DNA of 63,698 nt, filler included. It is 10 parts of 10 records of this genome, joined end to end, with 100 filler letters (N's around TTAATTAATTAA, not from the genome) between each part and the next. Parts side by side here need not be neighbours in the genome. Positions count along the whole stretch, not along the records: positions 5,275 to 10,837 come from SRR31147125_132179; 9 more parts are not named here. One strand, given 5' to 3'. Below are positions 1 to 19,070 of the stretch, in pieces. A model generated the notes under the pieces. The model worked only from the letters and a program-made list of their open reading frames with translations. It was not told where the DNA came from and searched no databases. Made by a program: the position numbers and the translations under genes. Numbering within the stretch: the first letter of the stretch is position 1; every line of letters starts with the position of its first letter.

Positions 1-473
1 AGGTTCCTCAGGTTCCTCAGGTTCCTCAGGTACAACATCGAACGAGGACACCGATGCAATGGAGAAACGAAGGAGGGAGGTGTGTGAATGTGTGGATCCT
101 GCCATGCATTGGTTACCCTTTGTTGAATAGGTGGACGAGGAACGATTGAAAACCGCTCAGAGATTGGCAGAGGCTGTGGAGGTAGGAGGAAGGAAGTTAC
201 AGAACCGAATACCATCCTCACGACCGATAGGCCCAGAAATGTGCTGAGAGGAAGCAACGGGAGGAGGTACTCGCGCGTCTACGCGATCTAGAAAGGCGAA
301 AACGTGAACTGGAGGAGGAACTCGAACGAAGACGCGAAGACTCACCCGATCAGAAGACGAGGGAAGAACCATCAGAACCACCAAGACGTCCAACGAAACG
401 CTCTCATCTGAAAAGTGTGATCGTCGTTCCCAGTACAACCGATCGTCGGCGGTGGGGGGTGAGGGAGAAGTGA
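1..473 (+). CDS. 3' part of a eukaryotic charged coiled-coil protein (2 introns; 5' truncated)
   Basis: Splicing two GT-AG introns (~80-130, ~182-230) gives (GSS)n-GTTSNEDTDAMEKRRREVDEERLK...EVLARLRDLERRKRELEEELERRRE...LKSVIVVP...REK*. No family recognised. Confidence 0.5.
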
Positions 474-524
474 AGACAATCCGAAGCCGATCCTCCAGTC
501 TCCCGTGTGTCCTTTGTGTGGAGA

Positions 525-2054
525 ATGAGACGGAACCTCTATCTGCTTCTCGTCTGTGTCTTTCTTGTTTCCTTGCACGGTCAGGAGAGTGAGGGTGAAG
601 GGGCAAGGAGGAATGAAAGTGACGCAGAGACAAGTTTCCAAGAGGGTGTGGATTTCTTTCTTCATGTAGGATAGAGAGAGAAAGAGAGCGAAGTGTTTGG
701 GGTGGCGCTCAGGGGTGTTGACGTGCAAGGACTTCTTTGATCTTGCCCTTGAGAGGTTTCATACGGCTGTACGACTGAACCCCGACGTCTCTGCCGCTTG
801 GGCGAACCTTGTACGTATTGTATGCCGCAGAGAAGGGTAGCGAGCCACCAACCCAGAGACAAGGGCATGACGTACATTGCACTGGGAGACAGTGCCCAGG
901 CAGAAGCTACCTATCTTGAGGGGCTACGCCGATTTCCACAAGATGAACAGTTGGAGGAGAATCTACGCGTCCTGCGACGACTTGAGGAGATCAAAGGCCT
1001 AGAAGAAAAGAAACGCACCGCACGAGCTGCTCAAACACACCAGGCAATGGAAACATTGATGGGTGTGCATCGGACTCAATATGAGACACTGGCGAGCCTT
1101 CTTCAGGGTGGTTCGATGAAAGATGCCCTGGCGTCTCTCTTGGATCTTCATGAGCAGCAGAAGAAACTCCAACAATACCTCTTACATCACTACGACACAC
1201 AGATGCAGGGAGAATCGGATGATCTGAAGGAAGACACACCAAACAACGACGTATTCCTTCTCCCTGCTCCTCAATTGTCCGGGCCTGTGAGTCTGGAAGA
1301 GGCCATTACACAACGACGGTCTATTCGAGACTTCTCTCAGGTGCATCCATGAGAAGGAAAGACATCCTTTGGTAGTCTAAGATCTCTCTTCAAGGAACCT
1401 GTGGCGTGGAATTTTTTATCTCAAGTCCTGTGGGCCATGGATGGGGATACACGGAATCCCGTGAAGAGAAAGCGGAATCGTTGGCGTTCTTCTCCATCTG
1501 CAGGGGGTTTGTCATCCCATGCGGAGGGAGTTTCTTCCTCTCATGTTCCCTTCAGCACTTTTCCCCCTGGAGATCTTTGTATGCCATCGCGATGGACTCT
1601 ACCAGTACATTCCTGAAGGACACAAACTCAGTCTTCATCAGGCAGGAGACATGCGGCACATTGTATGGCAGCATGGCCTGCAACAGGAGTGTCTCTATCG
1701 AGCCGATGCAATTCTCATTATCACGGCTGTGTATCGGCGATGTTCACACAAATACGGAGAACGGTACGAGTCCTCCCTCCTGTCTTACTGTATCAACCGA
1801 CTCCTCCTGTAGTGCTGAACGCTATGTCAAACTGGAGGCCGGGCATGTTGCACAAGTACGTCTTGAGGAATTCGTCCACATATTCAAGCCTCCATCCTTT
1901 GCAGAACGGCCTCCTCCAGGCTTCGGCTTTGGGGCTCGGAGCAACCCCCATTGGCGCATTCGACGACAGGGCCCTACACGAGGCATTGCACCTCCAACAA
2001 GGCTATGCCGTGCTTTATCTCATTCCCATGGGCTGGCCCCAACAGGATCACTAG
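525..2054 (+). CDS. Signal peptide + TPR + SagB/ThcOx-type nitroreductase-fold FMN oxidoreductase (6 introns)
   Basis: ATG525 MRRNLYLLLVCVFLVSLHG. Introns 666-729, 811-863, 1341-1394 and three more give TPRs (FQEGVDFFLHDFFDLALERFHTAVRLNP; AWANLGMTYIALGDSAQAEATYLEGLRRFP). These are followed by SLEEAITQRRSIRDF, RSSPSAGALFPLEIF and KYGERAERYVKLEAGHVAQNGLLQASALGLGATPIGAFDD, the canonical SagB-family motifs. Confidence 0.85.
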
Positions 2055-2080
2055 GGTTCTCTCCTTTTTTTGTACAAGGA

Positions 2081-4575
2081 TCACCCCTCTTCGCGCACAG
2101 GATCAAGACATGCCTGTATCATTCGCTCCAGTTCCGCTACTTGTATACGAACCATCTCTTCGGCACTCGCTCGTTCGGCAGCCTCCGTAGCATTGCCGTC
2201 GCATCCACTGGCTCGCACAGCTGCTAATCGCCCTTCAACTCCCTCTACGATGCGTTGTTTGTGAAGGAGCGCATCTTCTTGGGGAGAGGGTATGCAAAAG
2301 TTACGGTCAAGACCGAACACACACAGCCTGCCTGAGCTATCCCCCTATTGAAGACAGACAGAGTATGACTGACTAACTGCCCGACCACAGCAAGTGGAGG
2401 CGCACCGTGGCAGCAAGGTCACGTTCACGAGGATTGAATGCAACACTCAAGATCGGCTCCTTTTTCGGATCAACTTCCACACTCAACAGGGGGGCCATAC
2501 GGCTTCGCTGGTGTCACGACAAGGAATTCATCAAAATGACGGAGAGTGAGATGATCCCACAAACCTGTAGATCATAGACTACTAGACGTCCATCCCCTGA
2601 TCCCACGGCAAATACGAGTGGCCGCACGTTGGACCACGCCAAACCGTAGAGACCCGCGGAAGATGGCTCAAACGATGCAAGTGGTCGTGCCTGGAAGTGT
2701 ATTTCGCGTGAGGGGAAAAGGGCCGTACACACAAGACACAACCTGAAGACGATCGTAGATGTGAATTCGGCCATCACTGCTTGTCGAAGCAAACAGATTG
2801 CGAAGAAACGGGGAACATTCCATCCCGTGAACGGGACCCATGTGGGGATGGAACGAAAAACTCACCGCACCCCCGAAAAAATGAGGTACCTAACACGTGT
2901 GGTCACGGATTCTCATCTTGTCCAACAACATGGCCCACAAAACCTGCTTATGGGCCTCCAACACACTCGCTACGCTGATCTCAGCCAACCGTCGTTGTGT
3001 TGCATAGCTTTCCGTGCGAACCTACCATTCTATCATCCCCCCGCCCCCTTGATCACTCACACACCACATGGCCGTACCTTGACTTCCATGGCCTCGCGTG
3101 GAGGCAGACTTCCCACAAGAACTTGAGCATCCCGTCTCCATACCATACCTCCGTGTTCTATCCCCTTGATTTCACCCCGCCGGATCACACAACGATGCAC
3201 ACCCCCACTTTCCGTCCCCACAACAAAGGTGCCCCAATCTTTGCGCGAAAAAGAGAGTGATGTTCCACCCATTGGTGGGGTCCGATCCACACTTGAGAAA
3301 CTGTCACGCAGTTCAACTCTGGAACAATGTAAAGATCCAAAGATCCGAAGATCCGAAATCCACAAGAAGAGAAGGAAGGCACAAACCCAAACACAGGGAA
3401 GGCGAGACGGTTCTCCTCGGTCCAAAACAGCACCTTTCCATCTCCTGCTACACTCACAATCTACATACAGGATGAATCAATATGGGTCTGATTCGCTGCC
3501 ATCCCCGGCACACGTCACCTTGTACACGTGCGTTTCGTGGTCAAATAACCAGGTGACCTGTGCGCAGAATGATTCCCACAGGCGGAACACGGTACTCCGA
3601 TTCCTACTTTGGCAATGAATTCTCGATGAAGATGTTCAGCCGTCCGAGATGGCGATACAATGGGTTCCTCGGACACGGCGAAGTTCCACAACAGGATCTC
3701 TCCTAGAAATCACATCACACTCCCATCATCCATAGCACACTTCGCACTTCACACCATTATACGATCCGGCAACCAGAATTCCCGGATTCTCCGGATGAAA
3801 AGCAAGGCACATAAGACAGTTCTGCCTCTGATTCATCACCTTCCCAGTCCCAAGATGTCCCTCCTTACCAACAACAAACAACAACACACCTGCGTCTCAA
3901 TCCGTCTATCGGCTGTGTTGGGATCGATACGGTGTCGGGCTACGTTCCAGGTACACAGCACACCTACGTGATCACACCAACTTTCATGATCGATCCGTCC
4001 AAATCTGTCCATGGTAAAGTAGACGCGGGGCAGAAAGGAAGGGAAGAGGATACGATCCCGCCACTGTTGTTCCCAGGGCATTCCATCCCACTCCCGTGCA
4101 CACAAGAGACGGATCCATGTGTACGTCACGAAGTGCATGGAGACGACCACACGGTGCACCATCGTCCCAGCCCCACTCTACCAAATCGAACTCGGGTGCC
4201 GCACGCAGGTTCTTCTCCATTTGTGCTTCGACAAGGGGTCCTGCATGGGCAAGAAAGCGAGATACAGCCCCAGAAGTGATGCCTACAGGGGCTATCAGAG
4301 ACGTGCGCGCCCTGTACTGCTGACTCCAAACCATCATCGAGCGCCGTGGGGTGCACCTGCGCCTGGACCTGTTGTCCCTTCTCTCAGCACGCCGATGACA
4401 GGGCAACGACAAGAACCAACACACGCACGCTCGCGTCCGCATGAGTCCCGACTTGTGTTGGAGTCTCACGGGTGTCGATCGGTGTCGTCTGCACTGTAGC
4501 CTCTTCCACAACACGACGGGACCGCCACGTCGAGTCCACGGAAGCCTCTACCCCCTCCCAGTCCTCAAACACCAT
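2081..4575 (-). CDS. WDR34: WD40 dynein-2 (IFT dynein) intermediate chain WDR34/FAP133/DYNC2I2 (~13 introns)
   Basis: Spliced product: MVFEDW...VDSTW, QT motifs, WNALGTTVAGSFGRIDHESWC, CLAFHPENPGILVAGSYNGE, SVAGDGKVLFW, FVVGTESGGV, HMGPVHGMECSPFLRNLFASTSSDG, LAWSNVRPLVFAVG, ATGDSSG. Confidence 0.85.
4005..4053 (-). other. Putative U12-type (minor) GT-AG intron, 49 nt
   Basis: Donor GTATCCTCTT; branch-like CTACTTTAC 9 nt before the 3' end. Removal restores the conserved VAGS|FGRIDH motif. Confidence 0.7.
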
Positions 4576-4719
4576 TGGCGACGAATGAGAGATGTGATGT
4601 CGTTTGATTTGGTATGTGGGATCAGAGTGCATGGAACCCATTGGATCTATGTTCGTCCCGATCGGGGTGTGGAATCTATTCATCTCTTTAGATAGGCAGA
4701 TAGCAACAGCGAATTCAGA

Positions 4720-5174
4720 TCAACGACGACGAGGCACAAGCAGAGCGCCTATGATTATACCCACACCCACACTCACAGCCATGGGAATACCAAGCGCACG
4801 ATGGGCACTCCAATCTGTCGTCACAGCCTCTCCTAGAGAGTCAATACTTGTAGCGATCCGCTCCAGAGCGGCCAACAAGGATCGATCAAGGGTCCCTTCT
4901 GCCATATCCTCTACCACACGATCCTCGACTGCCTGCAAACGTCTCTGTAGATGAGTCGATTGTTCCACGAGGTAGGATACGTCTAGGGGGGGATGAATCA
5001 GACAGACGAAACCCACTGATCCAACCAACCAATCGCACACCGTCGCGAAGGAGAGACGCCTTCGGATCAACACGTTCCAATGGTGATGGAGCCTCGAATT
5101 GAGGTGGTTCGTTGTCCGGTTGTAAGCGTTCAGGTCTATCAGGCGACTCCTCCTCCTCCTCCTCCTCCTCCTCC
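4720..5174 (-). CDS. 3' part of a eukaryotic tail-anchored membrane protein (poly-E, coiled coil, C-terminal TM + RRR)
   Basis: One GT-AG intron; ends ...ALGIPMAVSVGVGIIIGALLVPRRR*. The (CCT)n microsatellite at the contig end encodes poly-Glu. Confidence 0.5.
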
Positions 5175-5274
5175 NNNNNNNNNNNNNNNNNNNNNNNNNN
5201 NNNNNNNNNNNNNNNNNNTTAATTAATTAANNNNNNNNNNNNNNNNNNNNNNNNNNNNNNNNNNNNNNNNNNNN
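5175..5274. other. Artificial contig-joining spacer (N44-TTAATTAATTAA-N44); identical copies at 10838-10937, 18923-19022, 24045-24144, 31361-31460, 36473-36572, 42712-42811, 51348-51447, 56502-56601
   Basis: Same 100-bp pad with stops in all six frames. Base composition, gene structure and taxonomic style change across spacers, and genes are cut at them. Confidence 0.98.
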
Positions 5275-8200
5275 GTACACCGTCCTCCTTACTTGAGCCT
5301 GGGCTATCGGGGGAAACGGGTGCTATGGCCGATCTGAAGAACTCAAAACATCAGACACACAACCACAGGGGAAGATCTCTGCTCCCACTTACTTTCGCTT
5401 TGCTCGCACAGTGTAGGAATGAGCTACAGCTTCCACAAGATCGTGGGGTGGAAGCTATACGCGCGCTGTCTGTGAGGAACAACGAAGCAAACACAACCCA
5501 TTCCGCACATCACGGTCCTCGCGCTTCTCCAAGTTACGCAGTTTCACCGTCCCAGATGTGTGATACACCTTTTCCTTGATGATTACCTTGGTGGGGTCGT
5601 GTGTCACAACGAATTCCACCCAGACAGAGCAGGACGACACCCACCATCCATGTAATCCCATTGGAACGACAATAATCGGTCAACTCATCCAGTGTGGTTG
5701 GTTCGGAATACACCACCTCAGCCTTGGAGCAGAGGGGTCAGTCAGGGCCAGGACAAGAGGGCAGATCCCTCTCTGCAACCTTGATTCCGGCCTTCCAAAA
5801 TCGCAAACCAATCATCAAGCGAACATCTTCCATACGCTCCTCCGCAGAGCACACAAGAACGTCCACTGTAGGGGAACCCCCATGCCCAGCTTGCTAGAGA
5901 AGTTGTGAGCCGAGCGGGGGAGGAGACGATCTCACACCAGGACCCACCTTCAATCCTGACATGATGTTGTGGACGGAGATACTCACACCAACGGCATGGG
6001 CAGGCGCTCCCGCAGGCGTGTTGGGAGGGCGGAATTTGGTGATCAAACTGTCATAACGACCCCCCTAGTAGACGGAACAATCCACACTCAAGCGAAAAAC
6101 AACAATAACAACAACGCTAGACGTACCACGGCAATGGGATCAATTGTGCCACCACGCTTTGCGTAGACCTGGAACATGATACCCGAGTAGAGCGAGACGT
6201 TGTGCACAACGCCCAAGTCTACGATGACATTTCCCGCCTCCAGTTCTTTGAGGATATACAACAGAGCCTGCGAAACAGAAACATCGTTATCATTTGAAGG
6301 AGGTGAGCGGGGTCGGCGTGCCTTCAGCTCGTCAATCGCCGCCTTTGCCACCTCATCTCTGTCGCCGTGTACGAATCATGAAAACAGCAACGACGAAATG
6401 CATCTACGTACCCTCTCAAAGCCTTTAGGAGTCGATCCAGCACATCATTGGGAGCACCCTTGCAAGTCAAAACACGTGAGTTGACAACATCAATCGAGAA
6501 AAGAGAGAAAAAAAGAAGAACCTTGATGTGAAGGAAGCCTTCCAAACGATCGACTGATGTGCGTTCAATTCCATTCTGTGTCATCAATCGTCTGATATTG
6601 ACCCATGTCCGCTAGAAGTGTGTTCCAGGCACATATATGATTGATTGACAAATAACAATACGAAATAAGATACCTTGGCTGTCGAAACGAGATTGATAAG
6701 TTGGCACACCTCTCGCCGCCGCTCTCTGGGTATTTCACACGCATCCAAGACCCCATTCAATAGTTTCACATGACTCAACTATGGTTTAACGAAATCTAGT
6801 GAGATCGAGAAGAGCAAAGGGCTCATACCATCAGAAACCGACGGCCCAGGGCTGGAAAGGCTTCAAGAATCTCAACAACAACTCGCAACACCTCTGCATC
6901 CGCTACCAAGGGTCCCGTCTTCCCCACAATATCAAAATCACATTCTACAAACTCCTTGGGGGGGCCTCCATGTACATTTCGTCTGCCGACGTCCATGAGG
7001 GAACTCGCTCACACTCTCACAGGGGATCCCTACCGAAAGATTCGTGCGATGGAATATCGCTTCAGTAACGTAATCTGCCAATTCAAATGTGTTGGGCGGC
7101 GGAACAGAAGGACCAAGTCAAAACGAACCTGATTCCGTGCGACGTATCGTGCAAACGGAACCGTTAGATCGTAGGGAAGAGCCACAAGATCGCCCATTTC
7201 GTCCATGAACGTAGCAAGGCCTGATTGGCTCGCTATGCGACTCTGATAGGTGGACAACCACTCAGAACGAAAGCTGAGAAGGGGATACATGCCTTGGGAA
7301 TCATCAGGGGCGTATTCAGCTCGAGGGCACCGTGTCGCTTGCACACTTTCACCATATGGCTGACGATTTGATTCCAGAGAGACGTGTCACTGGTCACAAA
7401 TTTCTTCGCGGACTGTAGACGCCTTCATCGGTATCACGCACACACGCTACCATCTCCGGCAAACCTTATAATCGTATGCAAAATCGGCTGTATCGTTATC
7501 ACTACGAGAAAAGAGAGACACAAGAAGGCGGGGGAACAGTCCTTGGTCCGGATTCGTCATGGTGTGAATCATATCTTGGACATATTCGTCCCCCTAATCT
7601 CGTACGGATGAGAAGTGGTACCATAGGACACCTCGAACACCACGCACAAAAGGAATGAGATCACTTCGCAGAAGGTCGATGGCAGTGGGTCGGTGTGACG
7701 GGTCCCTCTTGACCAGCCACTTGATCAGCTCACTCTTCTTCTGGTGCATGCGTTCGAACTCCTCCGGCAGTGTCCCATAACGTTTGAGATCCGAAATCGT
7801 CTGAAGGGAAAGTTAGCGATGGGGCTCGGGAGAGAGAGAGAGCCAGGGAAACCCCAAACCTGGATGCGCTCCATCTGGGTCCCAAACGGAAGACACATCT
7901 CAAGGAAAATGATACCCAGACTGAAAATGTCCACCTGGCTCCGAGATGAGAGGAGAGAAGAGGACAATGAAAGTCATCCACCAACTTCCTACGCACTCGT
8001 TGATCATACTTTGCCCCTTCTTCAACTTCGGGGCTGGCGTAGAGCGGTGTACCAATTTGGCCTGTTGCATTTCGTGGTGCGCCATCACTCTGCACATCTC
8101 CACACACATCCTCCAAGAAATCAAAGGCCTTGCCTCCCGGTGCATATTTGGGAGAGAGGAGATTGATGTTATGAGGGGCCGCCAATCCAAAGTCACCAAT

Positions 8201-10837
8201 CTTCACATCCCCCGCTGTGTCCATAAAGATGTTACTAGGCTTTAGATCACGATGAATAATCCCTGGGTTCGTTGTGAGGACAACGGAGCACAACAAGACC
8301 AACCCTACCTTTGCTATGAATGTGGACTAATCCTTCCACAATTTGACGGAAGAAGCGCCAGATTTCACTTTCATCTGTTGTTGAAGTGCCTTCTTCAATC
8401 ACCTTTTGTAGAAACAGCCGTGTTGGGAAGGCAGGCAACACCACAGACATACGGATCACCCACGCACCGTACGAAGGGTCTTCTTCGTGCAATACTCCAT
8501 CTGAATGTAAAGCCAGGGGGCAGGTCCCGTCGGAGGACTATCACTCTGAAAGGAGACCATCCCATCAGGGTGGTGGGAGTGGGGGTGGGGGGGAACATAC
8601 ATCGTCACCAGTGCTCGAAGATGAAGGATCCTCACTTGTTTCTGTTGGTCCTGTTGGACGTGTGCCAAAGTTCGTGATAAACCCGCCGCCCTCGGCAAAG
8701 GAGGGAAAGTTGGCCTCCAGGGGTTTAGGGGGATTTCGAAAGGAGAATCCTTCATGGAAGAGATGAGTTACGGTACGAGGAACCGGGGTGTGAAACGTAC
8801 CCTTACTGGAGGACATCCAGTCACCCTCATCGCCAGCGGAGTCATCCTCTTCCTCATCGGCGTCCATTACTGTTTCCATGTCAGAGAAGGCACTTCCACC
8901 TCACCCTCACACCTACCGGATGAAGCCTCGCCACCTTCAATCCACGCTTGATAATAGCGCACGACGAACTGATGGTGAAGCCGTGAGAGAAACAGTACCT
9001 CACGAAGGATCTTGGCGTTCAAAGCCTGTTCCGAGGAAAGGGGGATGTTGAGGACACACACCTCACGTGCCTCACACCACCAACCTTGTCTTTCGGATCC
9101 AAGCGGACTTTCTTAATGGCGTAGAAACGTCCATCAAGCTTATTCTTCGCCTACCATTCGTACACGTATAAGAAACAAAGAGGTTGTGTGCACACACCAC
9201 ACGGACCTTCACAACATCACCAAAAGCCCCATGACCGATTGACTCAATTTCCTCAAAATCATTGCGATATCGCGACTGAGCAGGAGCCCTTGGCTAAATG
9301 CAACCAGTAGTGGGCATCCCATGTCCATGTAGCACACACACGAACCAAAGAATCTTCAGCATCATCCACTTCCGACACACAAATCGTCGAGAACAGATCG
9401 TCTGACTCTGTATCTGACACACATCATTGGTACAACAAACACCAATACAACATGGCGCACCTTTTGATTGTGCTGCTAGAAGCGCCGTATTCGGTTTCCG
9501 TGGTACATCAACGCAAAAAGGATGAGACAACAACTGAGTGGCACTGGGACGGTTGTGGGGATCGCTTTGGATGTTCTGATGTCAACAAGAGTAGATAGAA
9601 CATCACATTCATCCCCTCACCGCGTGAAGCATTTCAGACAGAAGTCGCGGGCTTCGTCGGACATGGTGTCAGGGAAAGACGACATGGGGTCTTGCCCGCG
9701 TCCAATGTTAATGATCACCTTGGTTGGAGGATGTCAGCCAGTACGCGGCACACAAGACGACGTATCCCTAACCTGGTTCATGTGCTCTAGGTTGTGAAAG
9801 GGGAAGTGTCCTGTGGCCATTTCAATTACCGTGCACCCGAGAGACCAGACATCACAGTGTCGCCCGTATCCATCCTGCCGAACGACCTCTGGTGCCATCC
9901 TGTGTTGTATCGCACGAGAATGAAAAGGGGAAAGGGAAAGAAAAGGGGGAACCAACGCACCATCGTGGCGTCCCGCGGACCGATTTGAGCATCCCCGACC
10001 AGTCTATCCACAACGAAACCCATGAATGAGCCATCCTCCCTTCACCCCAACATACCCTCTGTACGATTCATCTTCTTGGAGGTTCCAAAGTCGGCAAGTT
10101 TCACGTGTCCATTCGAATCTAGAAGGAGATTGCCTCCCTTGATATCTGTGGGATGGGAATTCAATATCAAAGAGGCCGTGCATACGCACACATACATACC
10201 TCGGTGAACAATGCCTTGAGAGTGAAGGTACTCCAATCCCATCAAGATCTGTCTGGTATAGCATCGAATAACCGATTCTTCAAGTCGTGGGGGATGGAGC
10301 TTACTCATCAGGGAGGAGATTGATCCGCATGGCATGTATCTATTCATCGAGTGAGGATTGCAGGCATCGAGTGGGTGCCACATACTCCATCAGGACGGTT
10401 AATGTGCGACAGGGACCAGACGACATCTCCGTGCCAAGGTAACGGACAATGTGTGGATGTTGGAGATTTCGCATCAAATTAACCTCTTCGCACACTTTGG
10501 CGAGCTGGATGCAACAGGCATTACACGCAAAGAGTCGTGTGTAAACAAACGCACTTCAACTTCCAGAAACTCCATTCGATGAACCCCAGGATCAGGAACG
10601 GAGATCTGTTTCGCTGCCAGCATCTAATATGCACACAACACAATGACGAATCGCGATAATGAAGGAAAAGCGTACTTCGCCTGTGTCCAGATTCATTCCC
10701 AGAAAGACCTTTCCCACTTGTCCCTGTCCCAGGAGTTCGCCACGCTGCCATCGAATCTTTCCACATTCCCTGCGACAATGCAGTCTTAGTTCTGAAACAA
10801 CATACACAAGGGCGGGACAAACTGGACAAGGCGTTGG
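5275..10837 (-). CDS. GCN2: eIF2-alpha kinase GCN2 (MAP3K-like kinase domain + eIF2a kinase + HisRS-like + anticodon-binding-like), ~28 introns, cut at both contig ends
   Basis: [60 protein letters not shown], acidic insert, [35 protein letters not shown]. Then HisRS-like [39 protein letters not shown]. Confidence 0.9.
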
Positions 10838-10937
10838 NNNNNNNNNNNNNNNNNNNNNNNNNNNNNNNNNNNNNNNNNNNNTTAATTAATTAANNNNNNN
10901 NNNNNNNNNNNNNNNNNNNNNNNNNNNNNNNNNNNNN

Positions 10938-18857: not shown

Positions 18858-19070
18858 ATGGACCGGTTTTAGCCTCCTAAACATTTGCAGCGGTATTTGT
18901 GAGGTAACAGCTATTTTTGCAGNNNNNNNNNNNNNNNNNNNNNNNNNNNNNNNNNNNNNNNNNNNNTTAATTAATTAANNNNNNNNNNNNNNNNNNNNNN
19001 NNNNNNNNNNNNNNNNNNNNNNGGGGAGAATACTCCATTCATGGGCACACTCTTCCGAAATGACGGATTT

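Follow-up and report, generated by a model that had tools for sequence, protein, structure and literature searches.

The second contig of the window analysed here (the window being the whole 63.7-kb stretch of DNA) carries an intron-rich GCN2 gene in which the place of the pseudokinase is taken by a kinase domain that is, by sequence, of the MEKK/STE11 type. The contig covers window positions 5275-10837 (5,563 nt, about 51% G+C); the gene lies on its minus strand and is truncated at both contig ends. The reading that we favour, with a probability of roughly 0.7, is that this is one, probably amoebozoan, GCN2 gene that has retained the catalytic machinery of its first kinase domain, a machinery that would have slowly decayed in other lineages. 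The predicted product would comprise an RWD domain (off the contig), the first kinase domain, an acidic linker of about 45 amino acids (aa), an eIF2-alpha kinase domain and a HisRS-like part. Within this layout, the first domain would be the positional counterpart of the GCN2 pseudokinase, equipped with the full catalytic machinery of a MEKK/STE11-type kinase.

The gene model was built from six-frame open reading frames (ORFs) and the enumeration of frame-preserving GT..AG introns. Two public runs of one sample contain the contig, namely X1, which behaves as DNA, and X2, which is labelled 'DNA?'; their Logan contigs were aligned to it. The features are listed below from the 5' to the 3' end of the gene.

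10823-10837, minus strand: 3' end of an upstream coding exon, from the match of an X2 loose end; the remainder lies past the contig end.
10770-10822, minus strand: intron of 53 nt, GT..AG, before the first-domain exons, from a spliced X2 contig.
9461-10769, minus strand: first kinase domain, MEKK/STE11-like, from ORFs, splice enumeration, Pfam Pkinase, identity and PDB matches.
10769-10676, 10623-10555, 10504-10386, 10339-10200 and 10145-10056, minus strand: first-domain exons 1-5.
10003-9961, 9899-9773, 9718-9621 and 9564-9461, minus strand: first-domain exons 6-9.
9294-9460, minus strand: linker region, from splice enumeration.
9460-9414 (alternative ends 9408 or 9402), minus strand: predicted linker intron 1, GT..AG, from splice enumeration.
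9413-9346, minus strand: acidic linker exon of 68 nt, from splice enumeration.
9345-9294, minus strand: predicted linker intron 2, 52 nt, GT..AG, from splice enumeration.
7648-9293, minus strand: GCN2-type eIF2-alpha kinase domain with a long insert, from tblastn colinearity, Pfam Pkinase and alignment of the domain start.
9293-9207, 9150-9085, 9025-8917, 8869-8601 and 8262-7997, minus strand: kinase-domain exons, among others.
5275-7593, minus strand: HisRS-like region, truncated by the contig end, from tblastn colinearity and a sub-threshold Pfam match.

The first domain carries the glycine loop, the beta3 Lys, the alphaC Glu, HRD..N in a catalytic loop that is interrupted by an intron, DFG, APE and the subdomain XI Arg. 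A first-pass annotation of this DNA had described the catalytic motifs upstream of the eIF2-alpha kinase as intact, and they are indeed seen in the ORFs and the splice enumeration. Pfam Pkinase was matched on single-exon ORFs of both kinase domains (E-values 4.6e-16, 3e-12 and 5e-12). In its spliced model, the first domain shares 42-47% identity over about 275 residues with MAP3K-like kinases of stramenopiles, conifers and Euglena, as against about 25% with most GCN2 pseudokinases, and the top solved relatives of its single-exon ORFs in the PDB are MAP3K2 and MAP3K5. The earlier proposal of a MAP3K-like kinase at the pseudokinase position thus agrees with these identities. A pseudokinase has lost at least one essential residue (beta3 Lys, catalytic Asp, DFG Asp or motif), and none of these is lost here; of the features expected of a MAP3K, a STE-group domain with intact motifs and MAP3Ks as its closest sequences is present. 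The earlier description of the domain holds apart from the exact exon borders. Its first exon begins at 10769 rather than at the contig edge: the intron at 10822-10770 and an exon upstream of it exist, and the first domain is therefore not the N-terminus of the protein.

The remainder of the gene is GCN2, as had been annotated, with a kinase domain and a HisRS-like region that are colinear with GCN2 proteins of 1,500-1,700 aa. In an alignment with 190 GCN2 kinase domains, the start of the kinase domain falls on their conserved start; between the N-lobe exons and the remaining kinase domain sits an insert exon of about 89 aa; and the top matches of the C-lobe exon are GCN2s bearing RWD and HisRS Pfam domains. 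In the HisRS-like region, one exon ORF matches Pfam tRNA-synt_His with 23.2 bits against a cutoff of 25, and because of this score the assignment relies mainly on colinearity, which tblastn finds with the HisRS-like part of P0024 (Protostelium) and with residues ~912-1428 of P0275. The latter is the GCN2 of Luapeleamoeba hula (EukProt EP01087 P021459), a transcriptome-derived single ORF of 1,684 aa with RWD, first domain, kinase domain and HisRS, and it is the top overall match of the contig gene. Exon borders in the HisRS part are approximate, since they come from a crude dynamic-programming model in which several short exons were mis-joined; the anticodon-binding-like part and the C-terminal domain fall outside the contig. 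Overall, the GCN2s nearest to the contig gene come from Amoebozoa (Luapeleamoeba, Protostelium, Soliformovum and dictyostelids), and the source is therefore probably an unsampled amoebozoan.

That the first kinase domain, the GCN2 kinase and the HisRS-like region belong to one gene is probable. P0275 aligns in order to all three parts of the contig (tblastn), and its pairwise alignment is unbroken from the start of the first domain into the kinase domain. The frame of the first domain has no stop through exon 9, and the X2 contig there is stop-free to 9455. Short GT..AG introns of 47-63 nt occur throughout the gene, on either side of the point where the two kinases join. Taken with the open frame and the colinearity, the predicted splicing suggests that one mRNA probably encodes both kinases.

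Splicing is directly visible in X2. Eight contigs of this run contain 19 joints (15 listed), each of which skips 51-63 nt of the contig. Eighteen introns were tabulated (the 15 listed joints, two from pieces of record 13 and one from a loose end), and for 16 of them a GT..AG placement on the minus strand is possible; the remaining two are ambiguous by a few bases. Because the joints skip short GT..AG introns, X2 is taken to be spliced transcript from the same sample as X1. The introns supported in this way include 10675-10624, 9772-9719 and 9620-9565 in the first domain, 7996-7935, 7859-7801 and 7647-7594 in the kinase domain, as well as eleven introns of the HisRS part. The eighth contig spans only exon 12 together with parts of exons 11 and 13, as judged by arithmetic on the depth table. 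At 10769 a loose end adds 115 letters, of which the first 15 equal window positions 10823-10837 and the following 100 nt run past the contig end; by hand translation, the frame of this upstream exon is open over 30 letters of the loose end. Depths of the X2 contigs range from 11 to 31 across the gene, within one order of magnitude, which argues weakly for one gene.

The linker between the two kinases also has the features of a GCN2 linker. Its first predicted intron has three in-frame acceptors 6 nt apart, so that the intron measures 47, 53 or 59 nt and the linker 43-47 aa. These intron lengths and the 52 nt of the second predicted intron compare with 51-63 nt in the RNA-supported introns. Canonical GCN2 linkers have about 46 residues in P0104 and P0055 (vertebrate-like) and about 66 in P0024, and they are often acidic; the linker of the contig matches them both in its length and in its acidic exon. 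The earlier statement that the two kinases join without a stop through two introns holds as an in-frame splice prediction and does not extend to an observed mRNA, the junction lacking transcript cover.

To see the first domain among its counterparts, GCN2 proteins were gathered by three word-index searches and one exhaustive search, and six catalytic positions were scored upstream of the GCN2 kinase with a hidden Markov model made from the first domain of the contig and ten MAP3Ks. A GCN2-type kinase N-lobe was found in 190 proteins, 176 of which have at least 250 residues upstream of it, and a kinase-like first domain is recognisable in 138 of these 176. Not one of the 176 judged GCN2s retains all six catalytic positions, and five positions are kept in only 4 of the 138 recognisable first domains. 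A full DFG is present in a single surveyed first domain, the commonest replacement being DYS (23). Intact first domains are accordingly not the norm among the GCN2s judged; had they been so among protist GCN2s, the first-pass annotation would have lost its point. Luapeleamoeba hula has the first domain most similar to that of the contig (36% identity over residues 1-276 of the contig domain, E-value 1.8e-40). GCN2s of Protostelium, Soliformovum, Mastigella and Clastostelium share degenerate states with those of animals, for example DY[SAG] in place of DFG. In the dictyostelid proteins P0033, P0052, P0058 and P0060, no kinase-like domain was recognisable between RWD and kinase, only low-complexity sequence; two further dictyostelid proteins, P0236 and P0237, were counted only within the survey tallies.

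Several observations weigh against the reading of one GCN2 gene with a retained first domain, and they concern the junction, the N-terminus, the rarity of the architecture, and the origin and activity of the first domain. At the junction, none of the X2 contigs listed spans 9251-9454 and none of the X1 contigs listed spans 9367-9552, although gaps in listed contig cover prove nothing on their own. Record 13 of X2 stops at 9455, 6 nt inside the predicted linker intron 1, which may reflect competing acceptors, alternative splicing or intron retention; this is a guess. In addition, the sequence contains a pair of ATGs near 9364 which, with an alternative acceptor at 9289, would open the frame of the kinase domain.

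These observations leave room for two tandem genes, namely a MAP3K with a C-terminal kinase domain and, within about 100 nt, a GCN2-like gene that has neither RWD nor first domain. MEKK-type kinases often have their kinase domain at the C-terminus, and contig 1 of the window suggests a compact genome, both of which would suit such an arrangement. If splicing were skipped, the upstream frame would meet its stops at 9296-9294 (unspliced) or at 9261-9259 (after one splice). Both positions are at the first exon of the kinase domain or within it, past the sole usable ATG of a second gene, and a pair of genes would therefore need to overlap on the same strand. Moreover, the unspliced tail would be rich in Cys and Val and resembles a translated T/G-rich intron, all N-terminally complete GCN2s examined for their Pfam domains carry RWD, and the chance neighbour would have to come from the very family that gave rise to the pseudokinase, at canonical spacing and in a splice-compatible frame. 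Two genes are therefore considered quite improbable. An assembly chimera, in which MAP3K and GCN2 genes of different origin were joined somewhere between ~9455 and 9366, has a very small chance indeed. It is true that no listed Logan contig of X1 or X2 bridges 9367-9454, and that the sample is mixed, with bacterial-looking contigs elsewhere in the window; against a chimera, the two sides do not differ in G+C, intron size or splice style, and the join has the domain order, spacing and frame of a canonical GCN2.

The one-gene reading is also weakened at its N-terminus, where only 15 nt of the upstream exon lie on the contig and the RWD domain is placed off it by inference; record 8 of X1 extends 145 nt beyond 10837. 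Furthermore, no closer relative was found in any protein or contig collection searched, so that this form of the architecture has been seen once. A scan of metagenome contigs with a kinase exon gave 80 loci of 96 relatives; ten of the 80 match the kinase N-lobe (seven at 42% identity or more), and none has a first-domain-like match upstream at E < 1e-4. Under relaxed settings, loci L007 and L014 have the look of ordinary GCN2s with weak first domains. The insert ORF of exon 14 has no relatives in metagenome contigs or genome contigs, and no overlapping upstream contig was recovered. An exhaustive search of representative proteins with the 88-aa kinase exon gave 4,526 matches, of which 150 were listed, mostly multi-kinase repeat proteins; among these 150 of 4,526, the 44 proteins scanned with Pfam include no fused orthologue. 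One candidate, P0090 (830 aa), was rejected as a fused orthologue because its intact N-terminal kinase is of the AGC/CAMK type and it has neither HisRS nor RWD. The C-lobe of its second kinase resembles the GCN2 exon, and the protein represents a distinct two-kinase architecture.

The origin of the first domain was approached with phylogenetic trees, built without STE7 or STE20 reference sequences. In a first set (46 rows, quick and careful runs), the first domains of GCN2s fall together on one side of a branch supported at 99/98, and the first domain of the contig is not nested within any sampled MAP3K subclade. For a second set, five long rows were removed (PSK_P0032, P0063, P0044, P0041 and OTH_P0159) and twelve were added, five of which have no kinase-like domain (PSK_P0238, P0239, P0305, P0341 and P0242) and were dropped for the approximately unbiased (AU) tests. 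In the second tree, Luapeleamoeba branches off first within the main pseudokinase clade. When the first domain of the contig is held with the GCN2 first domains, the log-likelihood (lnL) is 2.9 and 4.9 units better than in the free search (p-AU 0.71 and 0.73). Its own branch has a length of 0.56-0.68, as compared with a median near 1 in the pseudokinase clade.

The opposing observations on origin come from the same data. The careful tree puts the first domain of the contig in a polytomy among active kinases, adjoining the branch of GCN2 first domains; holding it with MAP3Ks is only 0.95 lnL worse and is not rejected (p-AU 0.47); and the domain shares 42-47% identity with free MAP3Ks and no more than 36% with any first domain of a GCN2. 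The degenerate states of its amoebozoan relatives, read by parsimony, also argue for a capture. Under such a capture, the degenerate pseudokinase of a GCN2 would have been replaced by the paralogous domain of a MEKK-type MAP3K through exon shuffling or recombination, and the intact state would be recent. It would explain why identity to GCN2 first domains is as low as 25-36%, and the degenerate states common to amoebozoan GCN2s and animals would, by parsimony, imply an early degeneration. The capture is nevertheless unlikely in our view. The first domain lies outside every sampled MAP3K subclade, placing it with the GCN2 first domains gives a slightly better tree, and its borders and the length of the linker are exactly those of canonical GCN2s. 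In addition, the Luapeleamoeba intermediate, with five of six positions, the same domain start and a MEKK-like N-lobe signature, fits a gradual decay.

The first-pass annotation had offered an 'ancestral-like' GCN2 and a fusion as two possible origins; the AU tests reject neither grouping, and the trees do not separate the two. We lean towards retention with slow decay as the most economical reading of the sequences, because of the Luapeleamoeba intermediate and the canonical domain borders. A first domain derived from a MAP3K would then have stayed intact in the source lineage and nearly intact in Luapeleamoeba, and would have decayed elsewhere.

The last point on the opposing side is that catalytic competence of the first domain, which is probable, is read from motifs alone. 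In the function that we propose from the motifs and from the established behaviour of GCN2 and MEKKs, the HisRS-like part and the inferred RWD domain would act as sensors of uncharged tRNA or stalled ribosomes. The first domain would contact the eIF2-alpha kinase domain and help to switch it on, as pseudokinases do. The first domain may also phosphorylate a substrate, most likely GCN2 itself (in cis or in trans) and less likely a MAP2K. One may go further and picture a two-headed stress kinase, a surviving ancestral state of GCN2 in which one sensor module would drive both the phosphorylation of eIF2-alpha and an active MAP3K. Such a kinase would wire the integrated stress response and a MAPK stress cascade into one polypeptide; on sequence grounds we regard it as a tentative idea and rather doubtful. 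Of much the same standing is the possibility that the first domain is intact but silent, a purely allosteric scaffold like other GCN2 pseudokinases, which would be compatible with one gene. The known role of the pseudokinase is regulatory, through contact with the kinase domain and dimerisation, according to the available portions of PMC12867742 and PMC4014428, and near-intact but altered first domains occur in other GCN2s. Against a silent scaffold, the preservation of all six positions together with the glycine loop, APE and subdomain XI Arg, and the short branch, are what would be expected under purifying selection on catalysis.

The setting of the contig has some bearing on how the window should be read. 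The window consists of about ten contigs chained by nine spacers of the form N44 + TTAATTAATTAA + N44 (at 5175-5274, 10838-10937, 18923-19022 and so on), and because it is a concatenation, genes on either side of a spacer are not neighbours in any genome. In the contigs at 1-5174 and 5275-10837, the six-frame ORFs are numerous and short with shifting frames, as in intron-rich eukaryotic DNA, and long unbroken ORFs of bacterial appearance fill the contigs from 10938 on. The first two contigs look eukaryotic and the remainder bacterial, i.e. the sample appears to be mixed. An Rfam scan of the window gave no match. Contig 1 (1-5174) is eukaryote-like with a G+C content similar to that of contig 2; on its minus strand, pieces of ORF at ~2500-4550 were judged WD-repeat-like by eye only, and its plus-strand ORFs end near 2230. 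If the genes of contig 1 are convergent, their ends would be a few hundred nt apart, which hints at a compact genome.

A stop created by polyadenylation was also considered for this DNA. The motif TGTTTGTT, which we take to be associated with polyadenylation in Blastocystis, occurs at 9434-9441 (minus strand) in the linker intron and at 3873-3880 (minus strand) in contig 1. Stop creation in the Blastocystis style was rejected: the motif has 5 matches where 2.5 are expected, 10 of 100 shuffles reach 5, and no Blastocystis protein is among the matches of the protein searches.

A MAP3K origin of the GCN2 pseudokinase is not a new idea. In the available part of PMC12867742 (PNAS 2026), the GCN2 pseudokinase groups with STE11/MAP3K kinases and is proposed to have arisen from an ancestral STE11-like MAP3K by domain shuffling. 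The first-pass annotation had made the same suggestion, with which the domain on the contig is consistent and which had thus already been published there. The available text of PMC1420674, a 2006 study of the Dictyostelium kinome, states that the N-terminal kinase domain of IfkA is 'predicted to be active'. Beyond these two papers, our literature search turned up no description of a GCN2 whose first domain is of the MAP3K type and fully intact. The dictyostelid result of our survey sits oddly beside the 2006 statement on D. discoideum IfkA. IfkA is absent among the 120 matches listed in one GCN2 protein search. It presumably exceeds 2,000 aa, a size outside the length range of two of the protein searches.

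So far, the origin of the pseudokinase has been deduced from degenerate descendants only, as far as the accessible part of PMC12867742 shows. A GCN2 with a complete MAP3K first domain, together with the Luapeleamoeba intermediate, would allow bench tests of the deduced ancestral state. The questions would be whether the first domain phosphorylates at all, which substrate it uses, and whether its catalysis matters for activation of the eIF2-alpha kinase. Amoebozoa are the place to seek the transition to a pseudokinase.

Among the known systems closest to the contig gene, canonical GCN2 (yeast Gcn2 and human GCN2/EIF2AK4, with RWD, pseudokinase, kinase, HisRS-like and C-terminal domains) has the same domain order from the first kinase-like domain to the HisRS-like region, and the same kinase insert, kinase start and linker length; its first domain is degenerate (0 of 176 with all six positions), whereas that of the contig is complete. 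In Luapeleamoeba hula P0275, the first domain (residues ~271-517) has the same start and MEKK-like N-lobe signature and keeps the glycine loop, beta3 Lys, alphaC Glu, and the catalytic Asp and Asn; of the six catalytic positions, five are present. Unlike the complete domain of the contig, it has DYG in place of DFG and HGD in place of HRD, its activation segment is shortened and its C-lobe is reduced. MAP3Ks of the MEKK/STE11 type (MAP3K2/MEKK2, MAP3K5/ASK1, plant ANP-like kinases, and stramenopile kinases with PB1 or WD40) share the STE-type signatures of the catalytic loop and activation segment; in contrast, the contig domain is embedded in a GCN2, and the contig has no PB1, WD40 or other regulatory parts of a MAP3K. 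In animals, the MAP3K that senses ribosome collisions is ZAK-alpha (MAP3K20), a separate protein of the MLK/TKL type. The analogy with it is functional only, a MAP3K output coupled to translational stress beside GCN2, and no homology is claimed. Dictyostelium discoideum IfkA, as described in the available text of PMC1420674, is likewise an amoebozoan GCN2 with an N-terminal kinase domain predicted to be active, a likeness by description only. Judged by its catalytic positions, the first domain of the contig gene is the best-preserved MAP3K-like first domain known in a GCN2; it supports the published hypothesis and the remark of 2006, and opens no new category.

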